Assembly: GCA_963728545.1 (NCBI GenBank) | Contig: CAVSKO010000002.1 | Location: 358,874-422,873 of the forward strand | Length of the DNA stretch: 64,000 nt | DNA from: Blastocatellia bacterium | GTDB taxonomy: Bacteria; Acidobacteriota; Blastocatellia; UBA7656 | Direction of reading: 5' to 3' | Shown here: positions 17,932 through 62,772 of the stretch, in pieces | Numbering within the stretch: position 1 is the first letter of the stretch | Layout: the number at the start of each line of letters is the position of its first letter | Translations under genes and position numbers: made by a program | Notes under the pieces: generated by a model | What the model saw: only the letters and a program-made list of their open reading frames with translations | Databases searched by the model: none | Told to the model about the DNA's origin: nothing

Positions 17932-19899
17932 GTGGCTGTAATGTTGAGACTCAAAACATCTCACCGCAGAGACACAGAGAGCACAGAGGGGGCGCAGAGA
18001 AAACCAACCTCTGCTCTGCGCCCCCTCTGTGCTCTCTGTGTCTCTGCGGTGAGTCTTCTTGTAATAACCTTTTCTACGATTATCGCTGGTGCGCAGACCG
18101 CCGAAGAGTTCCGGGCGGAATTTCATCAGACGTATCCTCTCGCCGCGACAGGGCGGATCAACGTGAAGAATGTTTCGGGCGCTGTCCGCATCATCGCGTG
18201 GGACCGCAACGAGGTAAAGCTGGATGCAGTAAAGACTGCGCAGTCGAAAGAGAGTCTCGACGAAGCGGAGATCAAAGTAGAAGCCACCGCAAACGCCATT
18301 CAAATCCGTACCAGCTATCCTAATGATTGTTGCTTTTACTCGGAGGAGTGCTGCGAGAAGCGGTTTTATAGAAGCCGCGAATCCCGGCTCGCCTCGGTCG
18401 AATATAGCCTGATGGTCCCGCGAAATGCTCGCTTGGAATCCGTCGAAGTCATAAAGGGCAACGTGAAGATTGACGGCCTTTCAGGCTCTATCAATGCTTC
18501 CACGGTCATCGGCGAGGTTGACGCAAAACTTAATCGGCTCGCAGATTCTAATTCGATCACTTTAAGCTCGCTTACGGGCGGCATTCTTTTAACCATTCCT
18601 TCTGACTCGCACGCCATTGTGATCGCGCGGTCGCTTTCCAGCGAAATAACTAATGATTTCGGGCTGACGATAAATCGCGGGGAGTTCATCGGTCGCAACA
18701 TCGCGGGCCGACTCGGACGAGGCGGCGCGCGAGTGACGCTCGATAATATCACGGGCACTATCGCCGTCCGCCGCCTTTCGGACGGGCGCACGCCGAGCGC
18801 CGCGACGAACGTCAATCCTCAAACGGTGAGAGGCGAGACAGAGGCTAACCAGACTCTCGCTCGCCGCATAGTCGCGAGGGCGCGGCAACAGGCTCAACAG
18901 GCCGTCAACAATTCGGTCGATATTTCTCAAGCAATGCGCGATGTGCGGCGCGAGGTCGCTCGCGCGATGCGCGAAAGCTTGCCGATAGCCATCAGCATAG
19001 CAGTGCCGCAGATAGTCATAACTCCTGCGCCGGAAGCTAGAGTGCAGCCGCCTCGCGCTACTCGTGCGCCTCGCCCACCTCGCCCACCACGCTCGACACC
19101 ACCGGAAGCTCCGTCAACGCCGTCCCCGACGCCGACTCCAACAGCGCCTCGTGCCGAGCCGATCTATTTTAGAGTTAACGAGACGGAATCGAAATCTTTT
19201 ACCTTGAGCGGTGTCAGTCGTATCAACCTCGACACCTTCGACGGCCCGATAACGGTTCGCGCCTGGGACAAACAAGAGGTGTTGATAACGGCTACGAAAA
19301 AAGCCCGCGATGAAGAGGCGATGCGCAGTGCGCGAGTTCGGTTCGAGCAGCGCGCGGGAGAGGTCGTGGCAATTGCCCGATTCGATGATCCGGCAGGCGA
19401 GCGCGATAGCGCGGATGCCCAGGTCCATCTCGACGCATTCGTTCCGCGAAAAGCAAATCTCCGCCTCGCGACGAGCGACGGCAGGCTCTTTGTCGAAGGC
19501 GTGTCGGGCGAAATGGAACTGCGCACCGATGATGGAGAGATACGAGTAGCAAACGGGGCGGGCCGTCTGCGCGCCAACACAAGCGACGGCCAGGTTCAGG
19601 TCACGAAATTCAACGGCGACGTCGACGCTCGGACAAATGACGGGCAGATACTGTTGGAGGGACGTTTCAATTCTCTGAGCGCGCGAACGGGCGACGGAAC
19701 CATAACACTATCTCTTCCGGCAAGCTCTAACGCGACGATAGAGACTGCCGCCGAATCGATCATCATAGACGGTCTCAGAGTGACTGAAGAGGGCGATTCT
19801 GCGAGCCGGTTGAGACGTTGGAAAGTAGGCGCGGGCGGGACGGTCTTTTCGCTTCGCACAGGAGACGGGCGAATCGTGTTGCGCCGGTCGGGCGCATGA
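17932..19899 (+). CDS. two-module DUF4097 repeat protein with Pro/Thr-rich linker (start uncertain; 5' end overlaps palindromic repeat copy A)
   Basis: Two DUF4097-like repeat regions separated by PPRATRAPRPPRPPRSTPPEAPSTPSPTPTPTAPR. Confidence 0.65.
   Translation: MAVMLRLKTSHRRDTESTEGAQRKPTSALRPLCALCVSAVSLLVITFSTIIAGAQTAEEFRAEFHQTYPLAATGRINVKNVSGAVRIIAWDRNEVKLDAVKTAQSKESLDEAEIKVEATANAIQIRTSYPNDCCFYSEECCEKRFYRSRESRLASVEYSLMVPRNARLESVEVIKGNVKIDGLSGSINASTVIGEVDAKLNRLADSNSITLSSLTGGILLTIPSDSHAIVIARSLSSEITNDFGLTINRGEFIGRNIAGRLGRGGARVTLDNITGTIAVRRLSDGRTPSAATNVNPQTVRGETEANQTLARRIVARARQQAQQAVNNSVDISQAMRDVRREVARAMRESLPIAISIAVPQIVITPAPEARVQPPRATRAPRPPRPPRSTPPEAPSTPSPTPTPTAPRAEPIYFRVNETESKSFTLSGVSRINLDTFDGPITVRAWDKQEVLITATKKARDEEAMRSARVRFEQRAGEVVAIARFDDPAGERDSADAQVHLDAFVPRKANLRLATSDGRLFVEGVSGEMELRTDDGEIRVANGAGRLRANTSDGQVQVTKFNGDVDARTNDGQILLEGRFNSLSARTGDGTITLSLPASSNATIETAAESIIIDGLRVTEEGDSASRLRRWKVGAGGTVFSLRTGDGRIVLRRSGA
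17951..18060. repeat. palindromic intergenic repeat, copy A (~40-bp arms ctcaccgcagagacacagagagcacagagggggcgcagag / reverse complement, loop aaaaccaacc)
   Basis: Near-perfect inverted repeat read directly; homologous copies at ~41899..41992 and ~53182..53286. Confidence 0.8.
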
Positions 19900-20224: not shown

Positions 20225-22708
20225 GTGGAGTTGGTTATGATTAAATGTATAGTGGTGACTTTTGCATTGGTGCTTTGCCTGCTGGCGGTTAACACACAGG
20301 CTGCACAGCAGGATGCAGCAGCTTCGAATGGTTCATCTAATGCAGCAAAACCCGCCGACCCAAAACACGTAACAGTTCCCCCCGAAAAAGCGAACCCCGT
20401 AACGATACCTAAATTTGATAAACCGCCCGTAATCAACGGCAAGCTCGATGATGAGGTGTGGAAGACGGCGGTTGTGCTAAAGAATTTTTATCAAGTACAG
20501 CCGGGCGATAACATAGCCCCATCGAAACCCGCCGAAGTCCTTCTCGGATACGACAGCAAGACCTGGTATATAGCTTTCCGCTGCCCGGACGAGCCGGGCA
20601 AGGTTCGCGCTACGGTTCCGAAGCGCGATAACATCTGGGAAGACGACAACGTCGGGATGTTTATTGACACCTTTAACGATAAGCGCAAAGCGTACGCTCT
20701 TTTTTTTAATCCCATTGGTATTCAAGCCGACGGCACGCTGACAGAGACAAACGAAGATTACAGCCTCGATATAGTTATGGAGTCGAAAGGCGTAGTGAAC
20801 GAAGACGGGTACACCGTCGAGATTGCTATTCCTTTCAAATCGCTCAGGTATGAAGCGGGCAAAGGCAAGCTCTGGGGCGCTCACTTTTTCCGCCGCATCA
20901 AGCGTTTCAACAACGAGCTGAATTCATGGATGCCGCTCGACCGCAGCAAGTCGAGCTGGATAGCGCAAGAGGGGCACCTCGCCGGGTTGGAAGGCATTAC
21001 AACCGAGCGGCAGCTTGAGCTCATACCGACGCTGACCGTTTCGCAATCGAGCCGTAGAGTGAGCACGCTTTCGGTGGGTGCGATCAATGCCAATCCGTTT
21101 ATCGTAGACCCCGGTCGCATGGTCAACAGCCCGTCGAACCTCGACCCAGGTCTTTCGGTTAAGCTCGGCATAACGCCGAACGTGACGCTAGATTTTGCGG
21201 CCAACCCCGACTTCGCTCAGGTCGAAGCCGATCAACCCGTCATAACGGCCAATCAACGCTTCCCGATATTCTTCGCCGAAAAGCGGCCCTTCTTTCTTGA
21301 AGGCATAGACATTTTTCAGACGACGATTGCTGCCGTTCACACGCGGGCGATAGTCGACCCGGACTATGCGGCAAAGCTGACGGGGAAAATCGGGAAAAAC
21401 ACTTTCGGGTTTCTGGCGGCTTCCGACAACGCGCCGGGCAATTTTAGCGAGGATGAGATAAATGACCCTGAAATCTTTCCTGACATAGAGAGATTCATCG
21501 ACAAGAACGCTTATATCGGCGTGTTGAGGCTGAAGCGAGACGTAGGAAAAGAATCGAGCGTGGGTTTTCTGGCGACGAGCTATAACTTTATTGAACGCCA
21601 TAACCAGCTTGCGGGCTTCGACGGGCGGTTCAAGCTCGACAAGCAGACCGTTTTCTCTTTCCAGGTGCTTGGCACTACGACCCGCAGCTACTTCTACGAG
21701 CCGGAGATTGACCAGAGCATTTATAGGACGGGGAACGGCCTGGTCTACTACGCGGGCCTCGATAAAACGGGTCGCAACTTCGGCTATTACGCTGAAGTGC
21801 TGGGGCGGACGCGAGACTATCGCGCAGACGTAGGCTTTACGCGGCGCACAAACACAAACAGCGGTTTTCTCTTCATGCGCTATAACAATGACGCGAAGCC
21901 GAAGGCGAAACTCATCTCGTGGCGCGTGTCGAATGCAGCCGGCGTGAATTACGATTTCCAGGGCCGTATGCAAAACTGGAACAATGAATCTCAATTGCAG
22001 ATCAGGGTTCCCGGCAATACTTATCTCGGATTCGGCGTTGAAGAAGGCTACGAGAAATTGATTGAAGAAGAGTTCGGCCCCCTGCGCACGGCGACACAAC
22101 TCGGGGCTTTCTTTGGGCCGGATTCGGAGCGTTCGGCGCACCGCAAATCGCTCTACTGGTATGTCGAGACAGCGCCGAGCAAGAAGTATTCGATATTTGT
22201 CTTCACGTCGAGAAACTGGGGGGCGCTTGACCTGGACTTCGGCGGCGGGCCTCGGTTCCCGCGCGTCAGCCCCGCTGCTTTAGTCGATCCCGATGCGCGG
22301 CTCGATCCCGGAGCAGGCAATACATGGTTTGTTGACGGGATCGTCACTTACAAGCCTATCAACGCTTTGAGCACATCGCTCGGCTTTACAAAGAGCAGGC
22401 TTGTGAGAAGTGACACTGCGCTGCTGGCGTTTGACGACAACATCTTTTCGTGGCGCACGACCTACCAGTTTACGCGGTTCACCTTCTTGAGGGCGCGGCT
22501 CGATTATGACACGCTCGCATCAAGCGTTCGCGGGCAGTATCTGTTCGGATGGACGCCGAATCCGGGAACGTCGTTTTACGTGGGCTATAACGATGACCTG
22601 AGCTATAACGGGTTTGACCAGTTCACGGGGAATTCTTTGCCGGGCTTCCGGCGAAACAACAGGACGTTTTTTATAAAGACCTCCTACCTGTTCCGCCGCA
22701 GCCTTTAA
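20225..22708 (+). CDS. CBM9-like / DUF5916 domain protein (predicted outer-membrane or secreted), paralog 1
   Basis: Signal peptide; N-terminal carbohydrate-binding family 9-like block (KFDKPPVINGKLDDEVWK...FYQVQPGDN); long beta-rich C-terminal region ending ...FFIKTSYLFRRSL. Confidence 0.65.
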   Translation: MELVMIKCIVVTFALVLCLLAVNTQAAQQDAAASNGSSNAAKPADPKHVTVPPEKANPVTIPKFDKPPVINGKLDDEVWKTAVVLKNFYQVQPGDNIAPSKPAEVLLGYDSKTWYIAFRCPDEPGKVRATVPKRDNIWEDDNVGMFIDTFNDKRKAYALFFNPIGIQADGTLTETNEDYSLDIVMESKGVVNEDGYTVEIAIPFKSLRYEAGKGKLWGAHFFRRIKRFNNELNSWMPLDRSKSSWIAQEGHLAGLEGITTERQLELIPTLTVSQSSRRVSTLSVGAINANPFIVDPGRMVNSPSNLDPGLSVKLGITPNVTLDFAANPDFAQVEADQPVITANQRFPIFFAEKRPFFLEGIDIFQTTIAAVHTRAIVDPDYAAKLTGKIGKNTFGFLAASDNAPGNFSEDEINDPEIFPDIERFIDKNAYIGVLRLKRDVGKESSVGFLATSYNFIERHNQLAGFDGRFKLDKQTVFSFQVLGTTTRSYFYEPEIDQSIYRTGNGLVYYAGLDKTGRNFGYYAEVLGRTRDYRADVGFTRRTNTNSGFLFMRYNNDAKPKAKLISWRVSNAAGVNYDFQGRMQNWNNESQLQIRVPGNTYLGFGVEEGYEKLIEEEFGPLRTATQLGAFFGPDSERSAHRKSLYWYVETAPSKKYSIFVFTSRNWGALDLDFGGGPRFPRVSPAALVDPDARLDPGAGNTWFVDGIVTYKPINALSTSLGFTKSRLVRSDTALLAFDDNIFSWRTTYQFTRFTFLRARLDYDTLASSVRGQYLFGWTPNPGTSFYVGYNDDLSYNGFDQFTGNSLPGFRRNNRTFFIKTSYLFRRSL

Positions 22709-22717
22709 TTAGTGGTC

Positions 22718-22770
22718 GGGGCTTAGAGGCTAGAGATCAAAGATCAGGGACTCGCCTCTAAGCTCTGACC
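22718..22770 (+). terminator. imperfect 17-bp stem-loop after DUF5916 paralog 1
   Basis: ggtcggggcttagaggc ... gcctctaagctctgacc read directly; no clear T-run. Confidence 0.35.
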
Positions 22771-27199: not shown

Positions 27200-28942
27200 A
27201 TGTCGGCTAAACTGGGCGAGACCCTTCTAAAAGATAATCTAATCACACCTCAGCAGCTCAAAGAAGCGCTCGACTTTCAGAGAGTCAACGGTGGAAGGCT
27301 CGCCTCTACCCTCGTAAGACTCGGAATGCTTTCCGATGAAGAGGTCACGGCAGTCTTGAGCCGCCAGTACGGCGTCCCTTCCGTAAACCTCGACCTTTTT
27401 GAAGTCGATCAGGCCGCAGTCGCCCTTGTGCCGCAAGAGACGGCCGAGCGTTACTCGGTGCTGCCGCTGTCTCGCGTAGGCGCGACGCTCACGCTAGCGA
27501 TGGTCGATCCCACAAACGTCTTTGCCATAGACGACATAAAATTTATGACGGGCCTTTCGGTCGAGCCTGTCGTAGTCTCTGAGACGACACTCAATGCCGC
27601 GATAAAGAAATACTACGGCACGACGCGCGAGATGGAGCTTGCGCGCGTGATGGAAGACCTGGTCGCGGAGACGACGAACAAAAACCCTTACGGCGAAGAC
27701 ATCGACCAGCTTGACATCGAAGAGCACGAAGAGGAGATCGACCTCGAAAACCTCGAAAGGATGGCCGAGGATGCGCCCGTAGTAAAACTCGTAAACGTCA
27801 TCCTCGTAGACGCGCTCCGCCGGGGGGCATCCGACATTCATATCGAGCCTTACGAAAAAGAGTTTCGCGTTCGCTTCCGCATGGACGGCGTGCTTTACAA
27901 CATAATGGCTCCGCCTCTGAAGATGCGTGACGCGCTCACGTCGCGAATGAAGATCATGGCCCGGCTCGACATAGCCGAAAAGCGGCTTCCACAAGATGGC
28001 CGCATAAAGATCAGAGTTCGGCTCGACGGGCGCTCGCGCGAGCTGGATTTCCGCGTATCAACATTGCCCACTATCTTTGGCGAAAAGATGGTGCTTCGCC
28101 TGCTTGATAAAGAGAATCTGCGGCTCGACATGACTCAGTTAGGCTTTGAGGCCGCGAGCCTGGATAAGTTCAAGCGGAACATCTCGAAGCCTTACGGGAT
28201 GGTGCTGGTCACGGGGCCGACGGGTTCCGGAAAAACGTCTACGCTTTACTCGGCGCTGCAAAGCCTGAACACGCCGGAAACGAACATAATGACTGCGGAA
28301 GACCCGGTCGAGTTCAACCTGCCCGGCATAAACCAGGTGCAGATGAAAGAATCGATAGGGCTGAATTTCGCGGCCGCGCTCCGCTCATTCTTGCGCCAGG
28401 ACCCGAACATCATTCTCGTCGGCGAAATCCGAGACTTCGAGACGGCAGAGATCGCGGTCAAAGCCGCTCTGACCGGCCACCTCGTGCTTTCCACCCTGCA
28501 CACAAACGACGCGCCTTCGACTATCAGCCGGTTGATGAACATGGGTATCGAGCCCTTTCTTGTCGCAACTTCTGTGAACTTGATCCAGGCGCAGCGACTT
28601 GTGCGAAGAATTTGTAAAGAGTGCAAAGCCGAGCACCACGCCCCGGCAGAGGCCATGATCGACGTGGGATTCCCGGCCGCCGAGGTCAAAGAGATAAAGA
28701 CGTTCAAAGGCATAGGATGTGGAAATTGTAATGGTACTGGCTACAAGGGCCGAGTCGGTCTTTATGAAGTTATGGAGATAACCGACGAGATACGCGAGTT
28801 GATTCTGGTCGGCGCGTCGGGCTTGGAGCTACGCCGCAAGGCCATTGACGAAGGTATGTTGACGCTCCGCCAGAGCGGGCTTGAGAAGATCAGGCAAGGA
28901 TTGACTACGGTAGAGGAAGTCGTGAGAGAAACAGTTAAGTGA
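27200..28942 (+). CDS. pilB: type IV pilus assembly ATPase PilB (GspE family)
   Basis: N-terminal GSPII_E_N domain, Walker A VTGPTGSGKTST, Asp/His boxes, C-terminal tetracysteine CKECK...CGNCNGTG. Confidence 0.9.
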   Translation: MSAKLGETLLKDNLITPQQLKEALDFQRVNGGRLASTLVRLGMLSDEEVTAVLSRQYGVPSVNLDLFEVDQAAVALVPQETAERYSVLPLSRVGATLTLAMVDPTNVFAIDDIKFMTGLSVEPVVVSETTLNAAIKKYYGTTREMELARVMEDLVAETTNKNPYGEDIDQLDIEEHEEEIDLENLERMAEDAPVVKLVNVILVDALRRGASDIHIEPYEKEFRVRFRMDGVLYNIMAPPLKMRDALTSRMKIMARLDIAEKRLPQDGRIKIRVRLDGRSRELDFRVSTLPTIFGEKMVLRLLDKENLRLDMTQLGFEAASLDKFKRNISKPYGMVLVTGPTGSGKTSTLYSALQSLNTPETNIMTAEDPVEFNLPGINQVQMKESIGLNFAAALRSFLRQDPNIILVGEIRDFETAEIAVKAALTGHLVLSTLHTNDAPSTISRLMNMGIEPFLVATSVNLIQAQRLVRRICKECKAEHHAPAEAMIDVGFPAAEVKEIKTFKGIGCGNCNGTGYKGRVGLYEVMEITDEIRELILVGASGLELRRKAIDEGMLTLRQSGLEKIRQGLTTVEEVVRETVK

Positions 28943-29036
28943 TTTTAGATTTTTGATTTTGGATTAAGGATTGCGCGCCGACCCATCAGAGCTTCGGTCC
29001 CACAATACAAAATCTAGAATCCAAAATCTAAAATCG
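28941..29036 (+). terminator. AT-rich imperfect hairpin between pilB and pilT (gattttagatttt... / ...aaaatctaaaatc), GC-rich loop
   Basis: 13-bp perfect + extended imperfect stem read directly. Confidence 0.4.
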
Positions 29037-29047
29037 CCGGAGGTTAT

Positions 29048-30217
29048 ATGCGAGAGATTGCACTGAGCGATTTGTTGAGGAAGATGATAGAGCTTGGCGG
29101 GTCCGACCTGCACATAACGACGAACTCCGCGCCTATGGTGCGCGTTCACGGTGTGCTGAGGCCGCTTGAGTATCAGGAGATGACGCCGGCAGAGACGAAA
29201 CAGCTTGCCTATTCAGTCTTGACCGACGCGCAGAAGCACAGGTTTGAAGAGACTCTGGAGCTGGATTTCTCATTCGGTATCAAGGGGCTGTCACGCTTCC
29301 GCGCGAACATCTACAACCAGCGCGGCGCGGTCGGCGCGGTCTTCCGTTCAATCCCTTACGAGATACGCTCTTTTGAGGAGCTTGGGCTGCCGGGCGTAAT
29401 CAATAAGCTTTGCGATAAGCCGCGCGGGCTTATACTCGTCACGGGGCCTACCGGGTCGGGCAAATCAACTACGCTTGCCGCGATGCTAGACAAAGTTAAT
29501 CGTGATCGCCACGAGCACATAATCACGGTCGAAGACCCGATAGAATATCTGCACGCGCACAAGGGCTGTATAGTCAACCAGCGAGAGGTCCACTCTGACA
29601 CGCACTCATTCGCCAACGCGCTCAGGGCCGCTCTTCGCCAGGACCCGGACGTGGTGCTCATAGGCGAAATGCGCGACCTTGAGACGACAGAGACCGCGCT
29701 CAGAATAGCCGAGACGGGCCACTTGACTTTTGCCACTCTGCACACGAATTCGGCGGCGTCATCGATCAACCGTATCATAGACATTTTCCCGGCTCACCAG
29801 CAGTCGCAGATTCGCACGCAGCTTTCGATGGTGCTGGAAGGAATCGTCACGCAGGCGCTGCTTCCGAAGGCTAACGGGCAGGGGCGCGCTATGGCTATGG
29901 AGATACTTGTGCCGAACGCGGCTATTCGCAACCTAGTCCGCGAAGACAAGATTCACCAGATTTACTCTATGATGCAGACGGGTCAGGAAAAATACGGGAT
30001 GCAGACCTTCAACCAATCGCTTGTGAGTCTCTACTTCAAGAAGCAGATCACGCTTGAGATGGCTATGGCTCGCTCATCAAACGCGGACGAGTTACAGGAT
30101 TTGATAAATCGCGGGACGGCGGCGATGCAGGGTGCAACTCCTCCTGGCGTCAGACAGCCGGGCTATCCCGCGCAACCCAACCGGCCCATGAATCCGTTAG
30201 GCCGCGTGGGACGGTAA
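29048..30217 (+). CDS. pilT: twitching motility ATPase PilT
   Basis: Walker A VTGPTGSGKSTT; PilT signature AxxHLTFATLHTNSAAxSINRIIDIFP; 389 aa with short C-terminal extension. Confidence 0.9.
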   Translation: MREIALSDLLRKMIELGGSDLHITTNSAPMVRVHGVLRPLEYQEMTPAETKQLAYSVLTDAQKHRFEETLELDFSFGIKGLSRFRANIYNQRGAVGAVFRSIPYEIRSFEELGLPGVINKLCDKPRGLILVTGPTGSGKSTTLAAMLDKVNRDRHEHIITVEDPIEYLHAHKGCIVNQREVHSDTHSFANALRAALRQDPDVVLIGEMRDLETTETALRIAETGHLTFATLHTNSAASSINRIIDIFPAHQQSQIRTQLSMVLEGIVTQALLPKANGQGRAMAMEILVPNAAIRNLVREDKIHQIYSMMQTGQEKYGMQTFNQSLVSLYFKKQITLEMAMARSSNADELQDLINRGTAAMQGATPPGVRQPGYPAQPNRPMNPLGRVGR

Positions 30218-30221
30218 AAGC

Positions 30222-30362
30222 AAAGGATGAAGTATGAGGGATGAAGGATGAAAAAGAAACAAGCCTCGGTTCTGAAATCTGAGATTTGCGATTTTAAATC
30301 CGCGCCGCGCGCAAGCGCATCATGCGCCATATTCATCCTTCATCCCTCATACTTCATCCTTT
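30222..30362. repeat. 31-bp perfect inverted repeat (aaaggatgaagtatgagggatgaaggatgaa) flanking a 79-nt spacer, directly 3' of pilT
   Basis: Arms 30222..30252 and 30332..30362 are exact reverse complements. Confidence 0.8.
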
Positions 30363-30416
30363 AAAGATTGCCCCTTTGGTAGTAAACAGATTTAGAGTAA
30401 AAGTGGGGAAGCCAAA

Positions 30417-31643
30417 ATGCCTACTTATGTTTTCAAAGGCCGCAACCGAATGAACGAGATGGTTGTAGGCGAGCGCGTGGCTGCCGACCGCGCGGCGCTC
30501 GAAGCCATGCTCCGGCGCGAGCAAGTCATCTTGACCAGCGCGCGCGAGAAGGGACGCGAGATCAGTCTGCCCAAGGTTGGGCGCGAGAAGGTCAAGAGCA
30601 AAGACCTGGCGCTGTTCACACGCCAGTTTTCGGTCATGCTCGACGCAGGACTGCCGCTCGTGCAATGTCTTGAGATACTGGGTCAGCAACAGGATAACAA
30701 GTTCTTTCAAAAGGTTATCTTTCAAACACGCGCAGACGTTGAAGCCGGTATGACGCTTGCGGATGCGATGGCTAAACACCCGCGCGTGTTCGAACCGCTC
30801 TACACCAACATGGTTGCGGCGGGCGAAACCGGCGGTATTTTAGACATCATCTTGCAGCGACTGTCAACCTATCTTGAGAAGATGGTCAAGCTCAAGAGCG
30901 ACGTGAAGAGCGCGCTGATCTACCCGATAGCGGTTATCGTGATTTCGATCATAGTCATCTCGATCATCATGATAGTCGTCATCCCCGCCTTCAAGAACAT
31001 CTTTGAAGGACTGCTGGGGCCGGGCGAGAAGCTGCCGTGGTTGACCGAGCTTGTAGTCTCGATATCGCAATTCCTGGCCGGGTTCTGGTGGCTGATAGCA
31101 ATCTTTGTCGGCGTTATGGTCTTTGCGGCGAAAGCCTGGTACAAGACCGACAGCGGGCATCACATGATCGACAGCCTTCAGTTGAAACTGCCGATCTTTG
31201 GGCCTATCCTAAAAAAGATAGCGATAGCGCGGTTCAGCCGAACACTCTCGACCTTGCTCAGCTCAGGCGTGCCCATTCTGGAATCGCTTGAGATAACTGC
31301 AAAGACGGCGGGCAATATCGTAGTCGGCGAAGCGATCCTTAAAGTCCGCACCGGTATCGAGCAGGGCCAGACGTTTGTCGAGCCGTTGAAAGCCAGCCAG
31401 ATCTTTCCAGTGATGGTAAGCCAGATGATAGGGGTCGGCGAGCAGACGGGCGCTTTAGACGCCATGCTTTCAAAGATTGCCGACTTCTACGAGCAGGAAG
31501 TTGATGCCGCGATTGCAAACTTGCTGAGCCTGATGGAACCAGCTATGATTCTGTTCCTCGGCGTCACAATCGGTACTATAGTTATCGCGATGTATCTGCC
31601 ACTGTTCACGCTCATCGGCAAACTGGCAGGCGGCGGAAAATAG
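30417..31643 (+). CDS. pilC: type IV pilus platform protein PilC (GspF family)
   Basis: Two GspF repeats, three TM segments, 408 aa. Confidence 0.9.
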   Translation: MPTYVFKGRNRMNEMVVGERVAADRAALEAMLRREQVILTSAREKGREISLPKVGREKVKSKDLALFTRQFSVMLDAGLPLVQCLEILGQQQDNKFFQKVIFQTRADVEAGMTLADAMAKHPRVFEPLYTNMVAAGETGGILDIILQRLSTYLEKMVKLKSDVKSALIYPIAVIVISIIVISIIMIVVIPAFKNIFEGLLGPGEKLPWLTELVVSISQFLAGFWWLIAIFVGVMVFAAKAWYKTDSGHHMIDSLQLKLPIFGPILKKIAIARFSRTLSTLLSSGVPILESLEITAKTAGNIVVGEAILKVRTGIEQGQTFVEPLKASQIFPVMVSQMIGVGEQTGALDAMLSKIADFYEQEVDAAIANLLSLMEPAMILFLGVTIGTIVIAMYLPLFTLIGKLAGGGK

Positions 31644-31650
31644 TTTGTTA

Positions 31651-31740
31651 GTCAGTTGTCCGTAGTCAGTTGTTTATCGGTTATTTTATAACTTTAGACG
31701 ACGGACAACGGTCTACGGACAACTGACTACGGACAACTGA
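31651..31740 (+). terminator. 23-bp perfect-stem hairpin (gtcagttgtccgtagtcagttgt / acaactgactacggacaactgac) between pilC and pilS, ending 1 nt before pilS ATG
   Basis: Read directly; arms contain tandem acggacaac motifs. Confidence 0.5.
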
Positions 31741-31741
31741 C

Positions 31742-33472
31742 ATGCGTAGAAAGCTTCAATGGTTGTTGGTCTCGCGCCTGGCCTTGGCGGTTGGACTGCT
31801 TGCGGCTGTGGCACTCTTTGAGCGAGATGACGCCAAGCGTTCGTTTATACCCGTCCTCTCGATGCTCGCGGGCGCGGTAGTGGTGTTGTCGGCTTTCTAT
31901 TTCATCGCGCAGCGCACTTCGTCCCGGCTCAAGTTACAGGGGTACATCCAGCTTTCAATCGACCTCGCGCTCGTCACCTGGCTCGTCTATTTGACGGGCG
32001 ATGTCGAGTCGGCCTTCCTTGCGCTATATCTGGTAATTATCTTTGCCGCAAGCACACTATTTGGTAGGCCAGGCGTCCCTCTGCTCGGAGCTTCTGCGGC
32101 TGTGATGTACGCAGTGACGGGCGTACTGGCGATGAGCGGGCTGGCCCCGCGCGCCGACGGGTGGGCGCCTTACGATCTAAAGAGCCTGCCCTGGGCAGAG
32201 TTCATGTTCTCGCTGAACCTTACAGCCATCTTTGCTATCGCGGCGCTGTCGAGCCATCTGGCAGAGCGGATTCACCGCAGCGAATCCGAACTGGCTACGG
32301 CCACATCAGAGCTTGCAACCGCTACGAAAGAGTTGGCCGATAATCGCCTTGTTAACGACCGTATCATAGAGAGCATGCGAAGCGGCCTTGTGACGACCGA
32401 CCTGCGCGGCAATATTCTAACGTTCAACCGCGCCGCCGAAGAGATAACAGGTTACAAAGCGCAGGACGTTAAGGGCGACAATATCTCTTCGATTTTCGGG
32501 GACATTGACAAACAGATTGAAGTCGGGTTGGAATCGATCCGCACGCGGTCACGCTTGCCGCGATTTGATATCGGGTGCAAGACAGCAGACGGGCGCGACC
32601 TGCACCTGGGCTTTTCTGTCGCGCCGCTGGTTGACGAAGCGCCGGAACTGCAAACAAATGCAAACGGCTTCCCGTTTCGCGGTTACGTCTTGACCTTTCA
32701 AGACCTGACCGAAGTGATGGAGTTGGAGCGCGAAGTTCGCCGCCAGGAGCGGCTCGCTGCGCTCGGCAAGATGGCTGCGGGGCTTGCGCACGAGATTCGA
32801 AACCCGCTCGCATCCATGCGCGGGTCTGTCCAGGTGCTCGCAAGCGAGCTGAGCCTTTCGCGCGACCAATCTCAGTTGATGGAGATAGTCCTGCGCGAAT
32901 CTGACAGGCTGAATCGAATCGTTTCGGACTTTCTCACTTATGCCAGGCCGCCTCGGATCGAGCGAACGGTCATCGAACTGTCCAGCATCTTGTCAGAGAC
33001 CGTGGCCTTGCTCCGCAACAGCCCCGAGCTGACACCCGATCATCAGGTGGCGGAGGATTTTCCCGCCGAGCCTGTTCACTATAACGGCGACCCGAACCAG
33101 ATTCGACAGATCTTCTGGAACCTCGCTCGCAACGCCATACAAGCGATGCCGAGCGGCGGAGAGCTGCGCGTGACGCTTGAAGCCGCCCGCGGGCGCGAAG
33201 TGACTATAACCTTTAGCGACACGGGTCAGGGCATGAGCCGGGAGCAGAAGGAGAGAATGTTCGAGCCGTTCAACTCTTCGAGCGGCGGGACGGGCCTTGG
33301 GATGGCGATAGTTTATCAACTTGTTCGGGACCACAACGGAAAGATAGACGTTGAAAGCGAAGCCGGAAACGGCACTCGTATCTCGATAAAGCTTCCGGGC
33401 AGCGGGCGGGTCAAACGCGAGTTTGACTCCCCGGTTCCAGAGACATCGGAAGCAATAGTAACCCGCGTTTGA
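31742..33472 (+). CDS. pilS: sensor histidine kinase PilS-like (multi-TM, PAS, HisKA, HATPase_c)
   Basis: N-terminal 6 TM; PAS; H-box AAGLAHEIRNPL; N/G1/G2 boxes; paired with NtrC-type regulator upstream of sigma-54-driven pilins. Confidence 0.75.
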   Translation: MRRKLQWLLVSRLALAVGLLAAVALFERDDAKRSFIPVLSMLAGAVVVLSAFYFIAQRTSSRLKLQGYIQLSIDLALVTWLVYLTGDVESAFLALYLVIIFAASTLFGRPGVPLLGASAAVMYAVTGVLAMSGLAPRADGWAPYDLKSLPWAEFMFSLNLTAIFAIAALSSHLAERIHRSESELATATSELATATKELADNRLVNDRIIESMRSGLVTTDLRGNILTFNRAAEEITGYKAQDVKGDNISSIFGDIDKQIEVGLESIRTRSRLPRFDIGCKTADGRDLHLGFSVAPLVDEAPELQTNANGFPFRGYVLTFQDLTEVMELEREVRRQERLAALGKMAAGLAHEIRNPLASMRGSVQVLASELSLSRDQSQLMEIVLRESDRLNRIVSDFLTYARPPRIERTVIELSSILSETVALLRNSPELTPDHQVAEDFPAEPVHYNGDPNQIRQIFWNLARNAIQAMPSGGELRVTLEAARGREVTITFSDTGQGMSREQKERMFEPFNSSSGGTGLGMAIVYQLVRDHNGKIDVESEAGNGTRISIKLPGSGRVKREFDSPVPETSEAIVTRV

Positions 33473-33487: not shown

Positions 33488-34978
33488 GTGATGGAGAAGA
33501 TACTGGTTGTAGATGACGAGCGCAGCATGCGCGAATTGCTTGAACTCGTTTTAAAGCGCGAGGGTTACGCCGTTCACACGGCAGAGAATGGGACCCGCGC
33601 ACTTGAGTTCGTGCGCCAGAATGTTTATGACCTTCTCATTTCGGATGTAAAGATGCCCGACATCAACGGCATCGAGCTTCTTGAGCGCGTCCGCGAAATC
33701 TCGCCCGAAACAATGGTCATAATGATAACCGCATTCGCCACCGTGGACACGGCTCGCCGCGCGTTCAAGCTTGGCGCTGAAGATTTCGTAATTAAAGATT
33801 CGGGCTTCGATGTCGAAGAGTTGAAAGTGACGGTTGGCAAGGTGCTTGAGAAGAAACACCTGCGCCAGGAAAACGTGCTTTTGAAACGTGAGCTTCGCCA
33901 GCGCAACTCGCTCGACAACATCATAGGCCGATCACCACAGATGCAGGCCGTCTACCAGATGATCGAGACCGTCGCCGCTACGACTTCGACCGTGCTTATA
34001 ACCGGCGAGTCGGGGACCGGCAAAGAGCTTGTCGCGCGCGCTATTCACAGTATGTCAAACCGCGCGGGCGCTCCGTTTGTGTCTATCAACTGCGGCGCAT
34101 TCACGGAAACGCTTTTGGAGTCCGAGCTGTTCGGCTATATGAAGGGATCGTTTACGGGCGCGGTATCTAACCGCAAGGGGCTGTTTGAGGCAGCCGAAGG
34201 GGGAACGATCTTTCTCGACGAGATAGGTGAGACGACGCCTGCCATGCAGGTCAAGATGCTCCGCGTGCTTCAGGAGCGAAGCATTCGCCGCGTCGGCGGC
34301 ATTGAAGAGATTCCCGTAGACGTTCGGGTCATCGCCGCTACCAACCGTGATCTTGCGCAGATGGTTGAAGACGGCACATTCCGCAACGACCTGTTTTATC
34401 GTATCAGCGTGATTCCTATCGAAATGCCACCGTTGCGGTCTCGTCGCGCAGACATACCTGACCTTGTGCGCCACTTTCTTGAAAAGTACAGCGCGGCTGC
34501 CGGTCGGCCCACGCTTGAGATTTCCGAAGAGGCAATGCGTTATCTTGAGTCGTATGACTGGCCGGGCAATGTTCGAGAGCTTGAGAACACTATCGAACGG
34601 GCCGTCGCGCTTGAGCCTGGTCGCATCGCGGGAGTAGACCGCCAAAGAGTCGAATCAGGCCCGCTCGCAGGATTGCCGGACCGCCGTCTCAAGCCTGAGT
34701 GGTTGCCTGAGCGAATATTGAAATACAAGCCCAGGAACATTACAGACATCGATTTACCGGAAGACGGGTTGGATTTGGAAGCCTATCTGTCTCAGCTCGA
34801 AAAGGACTACATTATCCGCGCGCTGCAACGCACGGGCGGCAACCAGACTCGCGCCGCAGAGATACTGAATATGTCGGTCCGCAGTCTTCGTCATCTTCTG
34901 GACAAACATAAGATTCGCCAGACGGCGAGCCTTCTGCGCGAGTCTACGGCTGTCGGCGACAGCGCGGCGAATAAATGA
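33488..34978 (+). CDS. pilR: sigma-54-dependent response regulator PilR-like (NtrC family)
   Basis: Receiver domain (DDE...D...K), AAA+ sigma-54 interaction domain GESGTGKE / GAFTGA-like, C-terminal Fis-type HTH. Confidence 0.8.
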
Positions 34979-36490: not shown

Positions 36491-36531
36491 AACGGGCGAG
36501 CCGCCAAAAAGGCTTGCCCGTTCTTTTTTTT
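36491..36531 (+). terminator. Rho-independent terminator after pilin 2 (stem aacgggcgagcc/ggcttgcccgtt + T8)
   Basis: GC stem followed by ttcttttttttattt. Confidence 0.8.
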
Positions 36532-41992: not shown

Positions 41993-42004
41993 CCGAAAAT
42001 TGTT

Positions 42005-43492: not shown

Positions 43493-43501
43493 ATTTATTC
43501 A

Positions 43502-43563
43502 GTGATGAGTAATGACTGATGAGTGAAAAACAGAGTGCCGATACTCATTACTCATTACTCATC
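43502..43563 (-). terminator. imperfect hairpin (agtgatgagtaatga... / ...tcattactcatcact) between minus-strand genes
   Basis: 15-bp perfect + imperfect extension, AT-rich, repeat-like arms. Confidence 0.35.
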
Positions 43564-44617
43564 ACTCCAATCTCCTTGATATTGCGTCTATCACTTCGCC
43601 TGCCGGGATGTCCATACACTCCCAGTGCCAGCAGCTACGACGATAACAATCTGTGCGGCACCACAAATCTCTGCCGACAGTGATATCTCTACTATCAAAC
43701 GGGCCGTTGCGCTCAGGCGAGGTCGGCCCGTAAAGCCCGACTATTGGCGTGCCTGCGGCTGCGGCGAGATGAAGCGGGCCGGTATCGCCTCCGACAAAGA
43801 GACGCGCTCGCCGCGCCAACGCAACAAACTGCTTCAGAGTTGACGGCGTAGGGTGAGCCGCATTTGATCGCGAGCTTGCGCGAACGGCCTCAGCCATCGC
43901 CTCTTCGCCCGGCCCGTAGGTGACTATGGAATTGATCGCGCGGTTAGTTGAAAGCCAATCTGCAACCTCGCCATATCGCTCGACAGGCCAGAGCTTTGTC
44001 GGCCAGCCTCCGCCGGGATTGATAATTGCGAACGGGCTTCCGACGCGAGTCATCACGCGGTCGGCATATTCGTCATCCTCCGGCGAAACATAAATCGGGA
44101 ATTCGTACCGAGACTTAAGCGGTTTTTCGTTATTGATGAGGCTTTCGGCGAGCGCGAGATTTTTTTCGATGACGTGTTTTACCTGTGCGGTCTCTACTTG
44201 CTCGGTGAGGAAAAACCGGCTCGCTTTTTCCCGCAGCTCGCGGGTTTCAAACCCGATACGGCGGACGGCCCCTGTCGCCAGCGCGACTACGCCGGATTTG
44301 ATCAGTCCTTGAAAATCTATAGCAACATCAACCGGGCTCACGCCCGCTCCGTTATTGCTCGCGCCCGTACGCGCCTGCTCGATCTTGCTGCGTATGTCTT
44401 GGAGAGTTGCTTTACTAATCACATTCTTTCGCCACTCGCGAGTATCTATCTCGATCAGCTTGTTTATGACGGGCGAGCCTTTGAGAATCTCGCCGGCACG
44501 CCGCTCGACTATCCACGAGATGTGAGCTTCGGGCAACGCTCGCCTGACGAGGGCCGCTGCCGGGAGCGTGTGGACCACGTCGCCTATAGAGCTGAGCTTG
44601 ACGATTAAAATTCGCAT
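43562..44617 (-). CDS. ADP-heptose:LPS heptosyltransferase (glycosyltransferase family 9)
   Basis: N-terminal MRILIVKLSSIGDVVHTLPA; GT9 C-terminal GxDTGxxHLAAA motif. Confidence 0.8.
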   Translation of the reverse strand: MRILIVKLSSIGDVVHTLPAAALVRRALPEAHISWIVERRAGEILKGSPVINKLIEIDTREWRKNVISKATLQDIRSKIEQARTGASNNGAGVSPVDVAIDFQGLIKSGVVALATGAVRRIGFETRELREKASRFFLTEQVETAQVKHVIEKNLALAESLINNEKPLKSRYEFPIYVSPEDDEYADRVMTRVGSPFAIINPGGGWPTKLWPVERYGEVADWLSTNRAINSIVTYGPGEEAMAEAVRASSRSNAAHPTPSTLKQFVALARRARLFVGGDTGPLHLAAAAGTPIVGLYGPTSPERNGPFDSRDITVGRDLWCRTDCYRRSCWHWECMDIPAGEVIDAISRRLE

Positions 44618-44749: not shown

Positions 44750-45919
44750 ATGAAAAACATTAGCATACTTGGATCGACCGGCTCGATCGGTAAAAACACC
44801 TTATCCGTAATCGACTCCCTCCGCGAAAGATTTTCAGTCAGCGCCCTGGCCGCAGGTCGTGACCTGGATGGGCTGGCTCGCCAGATTGCGCGATTCCAAC
44901 CTCGACTCGTATCGGTGGCAGCCGAGAGCGACATCCCTGAGCTGACAAAGAGGCTGCGTGACGCGGGCGTAAGCCGCATGCCGGAGATTGTCTTCGGCGA
45001 CAGAGGGCTGGTCGAAGTGGCCTGCGTCTCGGATGCCGAGATAGTCGTCTCCGCTACGGTCGGCGCTGTCGGGTTTCTGCCCACTTACAAAGCGCTGCAA
45101 CTTGGCCGCCGCGTCTGTCTCGCGAATAAAGAGACTCTCGTTATGGCCGGGGAGTTGATGACGCGAGCAGCACGTGAAGCGGGAGCCGAGTTGCTCCCAG
45201 TAGATAGCGAGCATAATGCCCTTCATCAATGCCTGCGCGGAGAACGTACCAGCGAAGTAAAGCGATTGATATTGACCGCGTCGGGCGGGCCTTTTCGCGA
45301 AACTTCACTGGCCGATATGAAGCGGGCGAGTGTCGAGCAGGCGCTCGCGCACCCGACCTGGCAGATGGGGGCAAAGATCACTATCAATTCTGCCACGCTC
45401 ATGAACAAAGGGCTTGAAGTTATGGAAGCGGGCTGGCTTTTCGGGTTTTCAGCCTCCGAGATAGCCGTGATGGTTCACCCGCAATCGATAGTTCATTCCA
45501 TGATCGAGATGATCGATGGCTCGATCATCGCTCAACTGGGCGTGACCGACATGCGATTGATGATTCAATACGCGCTCACCTATCCGGAGCGCCTGGTGAC
45601 CGAGTTGCCGCAACTCGGAATCGAGCGACTTTCACGTCTGGAGTTTTTTGAGCCTGATTTTGAAAGATTTCCATGCCTCAGACTCGCTTATGACGCTATG
45701 CGCGAAGGCGGCACGATGCCTGCCGCATTGAGCGCGGCAAACGAAGTGGCGGTGGCCCGGTTTCTTGATAAGAAGATCGCTTTTATGGATATTCCTCGCG
45801 TGATAGCCGATACGATGGACGCACACGACACACGTCCCTGCTCTAGCATCGAGGCTATTCTTGAAGCCGACGGCTGGGCGCGGGCACGAGCATCGAAAGT
45901 CCTGAGTGCCGAGTCCTGA
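44750..45919 (+). CDS. dxr: 1-deoxy-D-xylulose 5-phosphate reductoisomerase
   Basis: MKNISILGSTGSIG NADPH motif; conserved DSEH/ NKG segments; dxr-rseP synteny. Confidence 0.9.
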   Translation: MKNISILGSTGSIGKNTLSVIDSLRERFSVSALAAGRDLDGLARQIARFQPRLVSVAAESDIPELTKRLRDAGVSRMPEIVFGDRGLVEVACVSDAEIVVSATVGAVGFLPTYKALQLGRRVCLANKETLVMAGELMTRAAREAGAELLPVDSEHNALHQCLRGERTSEVKRLILTASGGPFRETSLADMKRASVEQALAHPTWQMGAKITINSATLMNKGLEVMEAGWLFGFSASEIAVMVHPQSIVHSMIEMIDGSIIAQLGVTDMRLMIQYALTYPERLVTELPQLGIERLSRLEFFEPDFERFPCLRLAYDAMREGGTMPAALSAANEVAVARFLDKKIAFMDIPRVIADTMDAHDTRPCSSIEAILEADGWARARASKVLSAES

Positions 45920-45962
45920 GTAAAAACATGAGCACAGTGTTTTGGTTTCCCACTCAGGACTT
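45911..45962 (+). terminator. 10-bp perfect stem-loop (gagtcctgagt / actcaggact) overlapping dxr stop, before rseP
   Basis: Read directly. Confidence 0.4.
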
Positions 45963-46088
45963 AGAAAGCTCATAGACACCCTCATCGCACTAAGATAAAC
46001 TTAAAGTTGTATATCGGTCTGACGAATTTGCGTGCATGCTAACAGGCCGTTGAGTTGTGGCTCTATTTGATCTGAAGGAGAATTTGCC

Positions 46089-61784: not shown

Positions 61785-61805
61785 TAAACCTCCAGGACAG
61801 TGCGC

Positions 61806-61868
61806 AGCGGGCAGTTGTTCGTAATTTCAAATTTCAAATCTGAGATTTTCAATGCAACTGCCCGCTGC
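61806..61868 (-). terminator. 14-bp perfect stem-loop (gcagcgggcagttg / caactgcccgctgc) with AT-rich 38-nt loop
   Basis: Read directly; loop contains aaatctgagattt also present in the pilT-downstream element. Confidence 0.4.
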
Positions 61869-61875
61869 CCGTTGT

Positions 61876-62772
61876 CTACTGCTTCTTCATTTCATCGTAC
61901 ACCGTGCCTACGTTTGAGGCGAATCGCTGCGCGTAACCGTTATAGCCGGAGTACTGCTCAAGCTTGACATCTTTTACCGCCTGCTCGCGCGTCATTCCAG
62001 CGTCTACGGCTTTTTTGACGGCGGCTCGCAGGTCTAAAAAGTATTGCTTGAAACTCTTCAGATCCGCAACCGTTCCGACTTCGCCGTGTCCGGGAATTAT
62101 CTGAGATGCAGGGTCTACGCGGGCAATCACCGCGTCGAGGGTTTCGATCCACTCGGCTGTCAGTCCTCCGTGCGCGCCGTCGATGAATGGAATGTTTTTG
62201 TTAACGAACATATCACCCATGTGGACCACTTTGTCTTGCGGAAAGTAGATGATCGAGTCGCCGTCCGTGTGGCCGCGCTTGACGTGGAAGGCCTGAATCT
62301 CTTTGCCGCCGAGGTAGATTCTGATCTCTCGGTCGAACGTCAGGTTAGGCGCGTGGACTTCGGATGCCTGTACCGACTTGGCATCCATAAGCATGTTCTT
62401 GCGGACGTTATCATGAGCGACAATCGTCGTCATCTTTAGGAAGAAAGCGTTGCCGCCCGTGTGGTCGAAGTGGTGATGGGTGTTTATCAAAAAGCGTATC
62501 GGCTGTGTGGTCACGGACTTTATCTGCTCGGCTATGCCGGGAGCCAGGTCGGCAAATTGATCGTCTATGACGACAACCCCTTCGCTTGTGACTACGAAGC
62601 CGATGTTGCCGCCCCGGCCAAACAGGGCGTAGACCTCGCCGGTCAATTTTTGCAACTTGAATGGCCCCTTATCCTGCGGCTTGCTGCCGTCGTGCGCCTG
62701 AATCGGATTGGAGATCAAAAGCAGGCTGAGGACTGCTAGAATGGCGACCAGTCTTTTCATCTTCTCCTCCAC
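61876..62772 (-). CDS. secreted MBL-fold metallo-hydrolase (beta-lactamase superfamily)
   Basis: Signal peptide; HxHxDH motif THHHFDHTGGN; additional His/Asp ligands. Confidence 0.7.
   Translation of the reverse strand: MEEKMKRLVAILAVLSLLLISNPIQAHDGSKPQDKGPFKLQKLTGEVYALFGRGGNIGFVVTSEGVVVIDDQFADLAPGIAEQIKSVTTQPIRFLINTHHHFDHTGGNAFFLKMTTIVAHDNVRKNMLMDAKSVQASEVHAPNLTFDREIRIYLGGKEIQAFHVKRGHTDGDSIIYFPQDKVVHMGDMFVNKNIPFIDGAHGGLTAEWIETLDAVIARVDPASQIIPGHGEVGTVADLKSFKQYFLDLRAAVKKAVDAGMTREQAVKDVKLEQYSGYNGYAQRFASNVGTVYDEMKKQ

Follow-up and report, generated by a model that had tools for sequence, protein, structure and literature searches.

Heptamer-periodic foldback hairpins between the pil genes of a Blastocatellia bacterium as candidate gene-less members of an intervening-sequence-like class of inserts

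In a stretch of 64,000 nucleotides from a Blastocatellia bacterium (Acidobacteriota; contig CAVSKO010000002.1, positions 358,874 to 422,873), which we call the window, each of the type IV pilus genes pilB, pilT and pilC is followed by a long foldback hairpin whose arms consist of tandem 7-nt units. Heptamer foldbacks of this kind are abundant in the intergenic spacers of Blastocatellia. Their anatomy, their 7-nt periodicity, their distribution and polarity, their presence, absence and turnover at orthologous junctions, the recurrence of their families, and their association with genes for PF05635 proteins are all observed directly. On balance, we lean towards regarding the pil hairpins as gene-less members of a class of foldback inserts that resemble the intervening sequences (IVSs) of 23S rRNA genes, inserts which are tolerated by the operon rather than purpose-built as regulators of the pilus. 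The foldbacks are a variant of two known kinds, rRNA IVSs and inverted pairs of heptameric simple sequence repeats (SSRs).

An inverted-repeat search of the window located the three hairpins where an initial annotation had described them; they are given without strand. Hairpin 1 (28941..29035) has 33-nt arms (28941-28973 and 29003-29035) of GATTTTN heptamers, which are 82% complementary and enclose a GC-rich loop of 29 nt. Its 5' end lies inside the pilB stop codon (28940-28942) and its 3' end 3 nt before GGAGG (29039-29043), the Shine-Dalgarno sequence (SD) of pilT. Hairpin 2 (30222..30362), the first base of which is situated 4 nt past the pilT stop, has 31-nt arms of GGATGAR heptamers (30222-30252 and 30332-30362) with a complementarity of 100%, and its 79-nt spacer contains small sub-hairpins as well as a degenerate heptamer remnant of the GATTTCA/TGAAATC type (~30270-30300). 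Hairpin 3 (31649..31741) is comprised of a 5' arm (31649-31673) and a 3' array (31697-31741) of GTCMGTN / NACKGAC heptamers, which pair best in the register 31651-31673 / 31719-31741 (23 nt, 100%) and alternatively as 31649-31673 / 31705-31729. It begins 5-7 nt past the pilC stop, and its 3' arm, for which a gap of 1 nt before pilS had been claimed, ends at 31741 and directly abuts the pilS ATG at 31742. No free SD is left at this junction, and translation of pilS would therefore need opening of the stem, as might be brought about by ribosomes that reach the pilC stop, 6 nt 5' of the arm, and terminate there. The stems of the three elements measure 23-33 bp and the loops 29-79 nt. Predicted RNA folding energies are -36.9, -73.0, and -49.5 kcal/mol for hairpins 1, 2, and 3, respectively, corresponding to z-scores of -5.7, -11.2, and -9.5 against dinucleotide shuffles, and 0 of 200 shuffles folded equally well.

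The arms had been called internally repetitive, and this can be put more sharply, as the repeats are specifically tandem units of 7 nt. Self-identity at lag 7 amounts to 0.72-0.81 in all six arms, compared to 0.05-0.44 at lags 5, 6, 8, and 9 (shuffle p<0.0002). Hairpin 1 is built from GATTTTA, GATTTTT, GATTTTG, and GATTAAG, and hairpin 2 from GATGAAG, TATGAGG, GATGAAG, and GATGAA. In hairpin 3, one arm reads GTCAGTT, GTCCGTA, and GTCAGTT and the other GACGACG, GACAACG, GTCTACG, GACAACT, GACTACG, and GACAACT. The 5' arms are indeed AT-rich (GC 0.24-0.44), but the surrounding genome, with a GC content of ~54%, is not strongly GC-rich as had been stated. That each element has a unique sequence is true within the window and not beyond it, because the heptamer families recur in other genomes.

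Four further heptamer-periodic hairpins, again given without strand, bring the total in the 64-kb window to 7. The hairpin at 22714..22770 lies 6 nt past the stop of the open reading frame (ORF) 20225-22708 (lag-7 identity 0.60, p=0.0004), and a hairpin of GATGAGT units at 43501..43566 (lag-7 identity 0.76) fills the gap between two minus-strand genes. The hairpin at 45888..45971 has GTCCTGA / GTGCCGA units and belongs to the family of the pilT|pilC element in locus L001 of the comparison set described below, with which it also has the right flank ACTCAGGACTnAGAAAGC in common. The hairpin at 61796..61876 consists of nnCAGnn units, and its loop holds a nested AATTTCA/AATCTGA remnant. The 13-mer AAATCTGAGATTT, noted earlier as shared between two hairpins, occurs exactly twice in the window, at 30275-30287 and 61836-61848, where 0.10 matches are expected if up to 1 mismatch is allowed. 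The 13-mer belongs to a degenerate remnant of GATTTCA/TGAAATC heptamers that lies nested within both loops, that of hairpin 2 and that of the hairpin at 61796-61876, and an intact hairpin of this family is present in locus L009. Altogether, 14 long inverted repeats are listed in the window, and on a crude ORF map 12 of these 14 are intergenic; one of the two assigned to coding sequence (17960) is probably an artefact of an over-long ORF start.

For comparison, 80 pil loci from metagenome-assembled genomes (MAGs) of Blastocatellia / Pyrinomonadaceae (Acidobacteriota) were retrieved with PilC (66-97% identity). Window and loci add up to 1.34 Mb, and since the loci were picked around one operon, the counts that follow are not a genome-wide density. 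In this set, arms of long hairpins show a lag-7 identity of 0.55 versus 0.24-0.32 at other lags, and among intergenic arrays found by Tandem Repeats Finder period 7 dominates with 120 arrays, to which 23 of period 14 can be added, followed by periods 8 (31), 9 (26), and 6 (15). One fixed filter yielded 49 heptamer hairpins, 44 of them intergenic, and the intergenic ones have a median stem of 30 bp, a median loop of 39 nt and a median arm GC of 0.48, the low GC of the arms being particular to the three pil elements. Where both flanking genes are co-directional (+|+), the hairpin starts at a median of 3 nt past the stop and ends 16 nt short of the following start codon. The 5' arm contains more G than C in 44 of the 49 heptamer hairpins, among them all three pil elements, compared to a ratio of 75:59 in non-heptamer hairpins. 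As the G-rich-first order is the same on both strands of a hairpin, this polarity is intrinsic and not a strand effect. Units of the G-rich strand follow a weak consensus S-A-G-n-R-G-T (...GT[C/G]A... core), with 3.8 bits versus 3.0 for shuffled units, and a comparison of loop motifs and orientation gave a weak tendency to A-runs (10 versus 3-6).

Stop-to-start junctions of the 80 related loci are occupied by heptamer hairpins of other sequence or by none. At pilB|pilT, members of the closest clade carry (GATTCAG)4 ... (CTGAATC)4 in L005, (TTTTCAG)4 in L012, (TTAYTGG)9 in L015, GAGTCAG in L009 and L013, GTGTCAG in L008, and TTTGTCA in L018. The same junction is empty, with 14-15 nt (tag-GACCTGGAGGAGTT-atg), in L004, L007, and L010, and has only 37-40 nt in L002 and L003. 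In L001, the arms of the pilB|pilT ortholog are kept (~85% identical, with one compensatory pair) and the loop is unrelated. At pilT|pilC, GGATGAR arms are found in the window, in L008 and in L009, and the related unit GATGAAT in L013, but L001, whose PilT and PilC share 96-97% identity with those of the window, nevertheless possesses a GTSCTGA element at this junction. In one Pyrinomonadaceae subclade, every member has a pilT|pilC hairpin, with AGTGACR, AGAGGTY, ATTGCGG, GTTTCAG, or AGTRAAT as units, whereas its sister groups have an empty junction of 19-38 nt. In every case of a filled junction the 3' arm ends immediately 5' of the host SD. A different element occupies pilT|pilC in L007, namely the GC-rich palindrome GTAGGGGCGG...CCGCCCC instead of a heptamer hairpin; the same locus also contains three copies of a palindrome family CCTTCGCGTGCTTTGCGGTCCTTTGCG... 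with stems of 41-52 bp (sites listed for L007: 1204-1299, 4622-4731, 7984-8068, and 10555-10663).

The heptamer families are not bound to the pil operon. GTCMGTN arms, the family of hairpin 3, are encountered at unrelated loci in L018, L061, and L070, and GGATGAR, the family of hairpin 2, also at other loci in L060 and L111. Of the 120 loci listed in a scan of soil and peat metagenomes with CAGTTGTCCGTNGTC, a pattern too short for this collection, many appeared to be single matches that had arisen by chance; after a filter, 42 matches remained in genuine heptamer arrays. The complementary array of these 42 GTCMGTN arrays lies downstream, that is in the G-first order, in 19 cases and upstream in 2. 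The same metagenome contigs also carry hairpins of GGATGAR, AGTGACR, GATTGSN, and GAAAWTC units, the first three of which recur in independent contigs. Hairpins of one family are even found inside the loops of another, for example in L051, L074, and L083. Of the options in the initial annotation, a non-autonomous element family agrees best with these data, and what has to be given up is its definition by structure rather than sequence, as the arms are 7-nt periodic, the heptamer families recur, and a weak core is shared. It also has to be amended, since a gene-bearing form exists that carries a PF05635/S23p gene in its loop.

This form is seen at pilS|pilR in L033, L054, L058, and L059, where inverted (AGTCAGA)n arrays surround ~450 nt encoding a protein of 121-126 amino acyl residues, and in L019 and L046, where (AGTGGTT)n arrays likewise enclose such an ORF. 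The enclosed protein belongs to PF05635 ('23S rRNA-intervening sequence protein') / TIGR02436 ('four helix bundle protein') with E values of 1e-36 to 1e-41; the protein from Blastocatellia is distantly Avd-like, and its best match in the PDB is XCC0516 from Xanthomonas campestris (E 3e-23). Within the AGTCAGA arrays at pilS|pilR, the ORF is intact in L033, L058, and L059, broken in L054, and missing in L030, L035, L037, and L055. The SD of the PF05635 ORF is supplied by the G-rich upstream array (AGGAG within GAGTCAGGAGTCAG), which would provide a reason for the G-first polarity that is common to the gene-less copies.

PF05635 ORFs within arrays were found in L019, L033, L046, L054, L058, L059, L132, L201-L218, and L220-L224. 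Among 18 independent PF05635 sites, 15 are framed on both sides by inverted short-period arrays. At 2 others the arrays are direct or one-sided (Pseudanabaena and Nostoc 7120 gamma), and 1 (Calothrix PCC 7716) has none. Inverted arrays occur at six sites from Acidobacteriota or metagenomes, on plasmids of Nostoc punctiforme, Trichormus variabilis, Picosynechococcus (cmr2/cmr3), Geminocystis, Anabaena sp. 90, Calothrix brevissima, and Stanieria, in Gemmatirosa, where the units are octamers, and in Azospirillum lipoferum, where the copy resides within a 23S rRNA gene. In nearly all sites the PF05635 gene is co-oriented with its neighbours. Its distance from the preceding stop is 30-70 nt. Proteins from plasmids of Nostocales (Aulosira, Nostoc) share 72% identity with the one from Pyrinomonadaceae, and a plasmid collection contains 25 records with a PF05635 match, 11 from Nostoc and most others from cyanobacteria. 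Such an identity across phyla suggests, from comparison of the sequences, that this small gene has been transferred between phyla.

Individual PF05635 sites merit description. On the A. lipoferum plasmid AZO_p2 (L217), an unannotated PF05635 ORF (record 14398-14736) is located inside a 23S rRNA gene, as its flanks can be read as 23S sequence, and its arms have a period of 7 nt (CAGAGGA, CGGATGA, CAGAGGA, CGGAGGA), in other words a classical ORF-bearing IVS with heptamer arms. PF05635 genes with heptamer arrays are also encountered within CRISPR-Cas operons, between cmr2 and cmr3 on the Picosynechococcus plasmid (L215, 595-951), upstream of cas4 in Anabaena sp. 90 (L221, 283-651), and between cas6 and cas4 in Pseudanabaena (L222, 298-657). 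Being wedged in such operons would explain why PF05635 is listed (23S_rRNA_IVP) as 'cas-associated'. The Pseudanabaena copy is flanked by direct arrays, ~15 x CTAAAAG upstream (170-297) and ~10 x CCAAAAG downstream (658-760), so that the gene-bearing form can do without a hairpin.

We infer that gene-less and gene-bearing forms constitute one element family, by descent or by kinship, because they share the polarity that the ORF needs for its SD and because the pilS|pilR junction presents a series with intact, broken, and absent ORFs; the heptamer foldbacks also seem to be mobile, or at least to have spread. Lying precisely in the gap that separates a stop codon from the following ribosome-binding site or start, such an insert would fold out as its arms pair, and at the foot of the stem the stop would remain next to the downstream start region. 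The adjacency of stop and start that relatives with an empty junction of 14-15 nt possess would thereby be kept, which would explain why these inserts are tolerated in operons. By analogy with IVS stems, the stems of the hairpins (25-33 bp) are probably substrates for RNase III within the pil mRNA, a stem length of at least 22 bp being compatible with this. Sites of mRNA processing, another option in the initial annotation, are in this sense plausible. Cleavage of these predicted substrates would divide the pilB-pilT-pilC-pilSR transcript, the fragments of which would then decay independently of one another, with a possible effect on the expression of the pilus genes.

Several observations weigh against this view. 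In the gene-less pilS|pilR loops, blastn detected no remnants of the ORF, matches being confined to the arrays, and descent by deletion is therefore not demonstrated. The PF05635 profile identifies no ORF in the window, and among the inspected sites no PF05635 gene was seen flanked by any of the window's own three heptamer families. Neither a target-site duplication (TSD) nor a transposase or other mobility gene was seen. In contrast to ordinary MITEs (miniature inverted-repeat transposable elements), copies of one heptamer family do not have conserved loops. The units at orthologous pilB|pilT junctions (TTTTCAG, GATTCAG, GAGTCAG, GTGTCAG) are only 1-3 substitutions apart, which fits concerted evolution in situ as well as insertion. 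Stem mismatches on the sense strand, 30 G-U versus 37 A-C, show no excess of G-U and hence no sign that pairing of the sense RNA in particular has been preserved. Finally, the arms are more conserved than neutral sites: the arms of hairpin 2 in the window and in L009 are 84% identical by manual count and their loops unalignable, compared to an identity at 4-fold sites of 0.45-0.49 for the same pair and of 0.59-0.64 for the window and L001. A few compensatory pairs occur in the arms, which are conserved while the loops are replaced. Such conservation could mean selection for a function and leaves room for one.

More tentatively, and with rather less confidence than for the pil hairpins themselves, we suggest that the foldbacks, the PF05635/S23p paralogue families, the cyanobacterial heptamers of the STRR (short tandemly repeated repetitive) type, and the 23S IVSs might represent one selfish element that crosses phyla. 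It would live within transcripts, in operon junctions and rRNA helices, depend on the host promoter, and be released by RNase III, while an Avd-like S23p pentamer would act on the 7-nt arrays for maintenance or spread; the pil hairpins would then be MITE-like derivatives.

A rather unlikely alternative is that the hairpins are by-products of mutation, with slippage expanding heptamer SSRs, template switching creating the inverted partner, the arms evolving in concert, and PF05635 genes merely lodging in the result. According to Mrazek (2007), as relayed in PMC4679880, heptamers are the most over-represented class of long SSRs in prokaryotes, for which polymerase slippage has been proposed, and heptamer copy number varies among strains of Coxiella (PMC4990558). 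Perfect arrays such as (GATTCAG)4 and (TTTTCAG)4, with equal copy number in both arms, the close similarity of orthologous pilB|pilT units, the unrelated loops, and the absence of any visible TSD are all what such a process would leave, and in situ slippage with template switching is viable for part of the pattern. However, the same families, once together with the same non-repeat flank, appear at unrelated loci in related and in distant genomes, hairpins of different families are nested, and the G-first polarity (44:5 in the filtered hairpins, 19:2 in the metagenome arrays) requires an extra assumption. Also, arrays almost invariably frame a gene found across phyla, the product of which shows 72% identity between Pyrinomonadaceae and plasmids of Nostocales.

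Less probable still appears a selected cis-regulatory role of the hairpins in the pil operon, in which these RNA structures would stabilise the transcript between cistrons, mark it for processing, or couple translation, and so fix the ratios of pilB, pilT, pilC, and pilSR. The conservation of the arms above the level of 4-fold sites, combined with replaced loops and a few compensatory pairs, is compatible with such a role, as are the persistence of a pilT|pilC hairpin throughout one Pyrinomonadaceae subclade despite differing heptamers and the occlusion of the pilS start region by hairpin 3. In contrast, many close relatives lack hairpins at the same junctions, the class is also represented at unrelated junctions, among them those of divergently and of convergently oriented genes, the sense strand has no bias of G-U over A-C, and neither a T-tract nor an Rfam family is associated with the elements. 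The more specific suggestion of attenuators or terminators for graded expression has to be abandoned, as the pil sites have no T-tract and no terminator call and the hairpins are absent in close relatives. A T-tract follows 1 of 44 class members versus 16 of 96 other intergenic hairpins and none of the three pil hairpins, and a scan for the terminator consensus found nothing at the three sites and a canonical terminator after the pilin gene (36491-36522).

Improbable in our judgement is a function at the level of DNA, in which the hairpins, similar to repetitive extragenic palindromic (REP) sequences and bacterial interspersed mosaic elements (BIMEs), would, as double-stranded or extruded palindromes, be recognised by gyrase, nucleoid proteins, or the PF05635 pentamer and serve in supercoiling or replication: the G-rich-first order neither differs between the strands nor follows gene orientation, mismatches in the stems are neutral as to strand, three 7-bp units correspond arithmetically to two turns of B-DNA, and a heptamer-binding protein has been speculated upon in Nostoc (bioRxiv 10.1101/2022.06.06.494920), but the strict placement from stop to SD and the mostly host-co-oriented PF05635 genes point to the transcript.

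Membership in other established classes was considered as well. An intrinsic (Rho-independent) terminator needs a loop of 3-8 nt and a T-tract, and the hairpins have loops of 29-79 nt and lack the tract. They are not REPs or REPINs, having no GTAG/CGTC end tag and arms that differ among elements; nothing suggestive of a RAYT gene was noticed, though the window ORFs were not systematically screened for one. MITEs are excluded because filled and empty junctions reveal no TSD and loops are unrelated within a heptamer family. As for integron attC sites, no R''/L''...L'/R' cores (RYYYAAC ... GTTRRRY) were read by eye at the arm ends, and the neighbours are the conserved pil operon and not cassettes. 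Rfam 15 has 0 matches in the window at the gathering threshold and below it only look-alikes of eukaryotic miRNA precursors, that is generic long hairpins, and no tRNA or tmRNA is present in the window. An assembly artefact is excluded, as MAGs from short reads, MAGs from long reads, and finished plasmids of isolates all show this architecture. The three pil hairpins do possess the features of inverted heptameric SSR pairs, with tandem 7-nt units in convergent, G-rich-first arrays that are intergenic, near the end of the upstream ORF, and between co-directional genes. They also have the stem of an IVS, a terminal inverted repeat of at least 20 bp around a variable loop. In contrast to IVSs, they are situated between protein-coding genes instead of helix 25 or 45 of 23S rRNA, which makes them IVS-like and not IVSs in the strict sense, and the S23p (PF05635) ORF that is optional in IVS loops is absent from all three.

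The genes around the hairpins were assigned by a profile search covering nine ORFs of the pil region, and all those given here are on the plus strand. The gene for the type IV-A pilus assembly ATPase, pilB (27200..28942; TIGR02538, 797.6 bits), precedes hairpin 1, pilT (29048..30217; PilT/PilU family type IVa pilus ATPase, TIGR01420, 501.5 bits) lies between hairpins 1 and 2, and pilC (30417..31643), coding for the platform protein, between hairpins 2 and 3. Downstream of hairpin 3 follow genes for a PilS-like PAS histidine kinase (31742..33472) and a PilR-like sigma-54 response regulator (33488..34978), and then pilin-like genes. Downstream of hairpin 2 (window 30366-30416), the ribosome-binding region of pilC, GGGGAAG, can form base pairs with a conserved TGCCCC; this stem, which possibly sequesters the SD, is kept at the same position in L001-L018, hairpin or no hairpin. 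The window further contains a CAGAG-rich palindrome, which spans ~110 nt and whose perfect stem can reach 40 bp, at 17950-18065, 41900-41995, and 53185-53285, and a copy exists at a non-orthologous site in L001 (6375-6468). Its flanks (AACATCTCACCGC ... GCGGTGARTCTTCTTG) and its loop are conserved, it is not heptameric (lag-7 identity 0.30), and it looks like an ordinary dispersed family of the MITE/REP type.

For the pil operon, these results speak for inserts that are most probably tolerated, not for attenuators by design; even so, the hairpins may break up the mRNA and cover the start of pilS. For annotation, they are a warning that heptamer hairpins should not be taken for terminators. The over-represented heptanucleotide repeats of bacteria, the S23p/PF05635 proteins, and the rRNA IVSs have hitherto been discussed apart; here they appear in one architecture and co-occur at 15 of 18 gene sites, a link that would also account for the spurious 'cas-associated' label of PF05635. 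In the literature, whose coverage here is incomplete, we found no published link of heptamer inverted arrays in operons to PF05635 or IVSs beyond the description of the Coxiella IVS. The old question of the role and spread of IVSs and S23p becomes directly testable. The interest is moderate for the pil operon alone and higher for the connection of heptamer repeats, S23p/PF05635, and IVSs across phyla.

Among known systems, eukaryotic Foldback (FB) transposons have long inverted repeats of short tandem repeats, variable arms, and a loop that is variable or absent and sometimes carries genes; the likeness is one of architecture only, FB elements being eukaryotic, of kilobase scale, and made of other repeat units. 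REPs, BIMEs, REPINs, and MITEs are similar as short, non-coding, palindromic inserts of operon spacers with possible effects on mRNA stability. However, copies of a heptamer family have only the unit motif in common and not loops or flanks, no GTAG/CGTC tag, no signature of terminal inverted repeats plus TSD, and no transposase was seen with them, and REPs are devoid of 7-nt periodic arms. Cyanobacterial STRRs and the TAACTGA / TTTTGAA repeats of Calothrix, Nostoc, Beggiatoaceae, and Bacteroidetes are likewise 7-nt units that are intergenic, often adjacent to start codons, and distributed patchily across phyla. Direct heptamer arrays near start codons were described by MacGregor (2015; PMC4679880) and in a preprint on Nostoc (bioRxiv 10.1101/2022.06.06.494920), and STRR-type repeats have been reported mainly as direct arrays, whereas those of Blastocatellia are inverted pairs forming long hairpins; the cyanobacterial PF05635 genes inspected here are nonetheless framed by inverted arrays.

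Closer still in form, Xanthomonas contains ~185 arrays of the heptamer GGGAATC, of which 70-75 form convergent inverted pairs and ~90% are intergenic; they lie on average 28 nt after the upstream ORF and are interpreted by the authors as G-quadruplex elements (Rehm et al., 2015; PMC4692102). They share with the foldbacks arrays of ~4 units, inverted pairs, mostly co-directional neighbouring genes, and variation in length between species. In contrast, Xanthomonas has one family prone to G-quadruplexes and the present lineage many, mostly non-G4 (GATTTTN, GGATGAR, GTCMGTN, and others). The authors made no connection to IVSs or S23p, but array #15 in their supplement overlaps the start of XCC0516, the S23p homologue of solved structure (PMC4692102).

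The 23S IVSs of Coxiella, Leptospira, Salmonella, and Alphaproteobacteria are viewed in the literature as inserts of a selfish or neutral nature, which RNase III cuts out of the transcript (PMC4990558). In Coxiella, the IVS has a terminal inverted-repeat stem of 28 bp, with GACAGAT heptamers repeated in tandem ahead of the S23p ORF (Warrier et al., 2016; PMC4990558); RNase III cleaves this stem in vitro, and the IVS has been called a selfish element of unknown origin (PMC4990558). The elements of the window differ from IVSs in lying within protein-coding operons, in their number (7 in 64 kb), and in their many heptamer families, and the three pil hairpins differ also in lacking an ORF, their status as RNase III substrates being predicted by analogy. 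What the foldback class and the IVSs have in common is the long inverted-repeat stem around a variable loop, the heptamers, which form the 5' part of the stem in Coxiella (GACAGAT) and 7-nt periodic arms in Azospirillum, and the optional PF05635/S23p gene within the loop.

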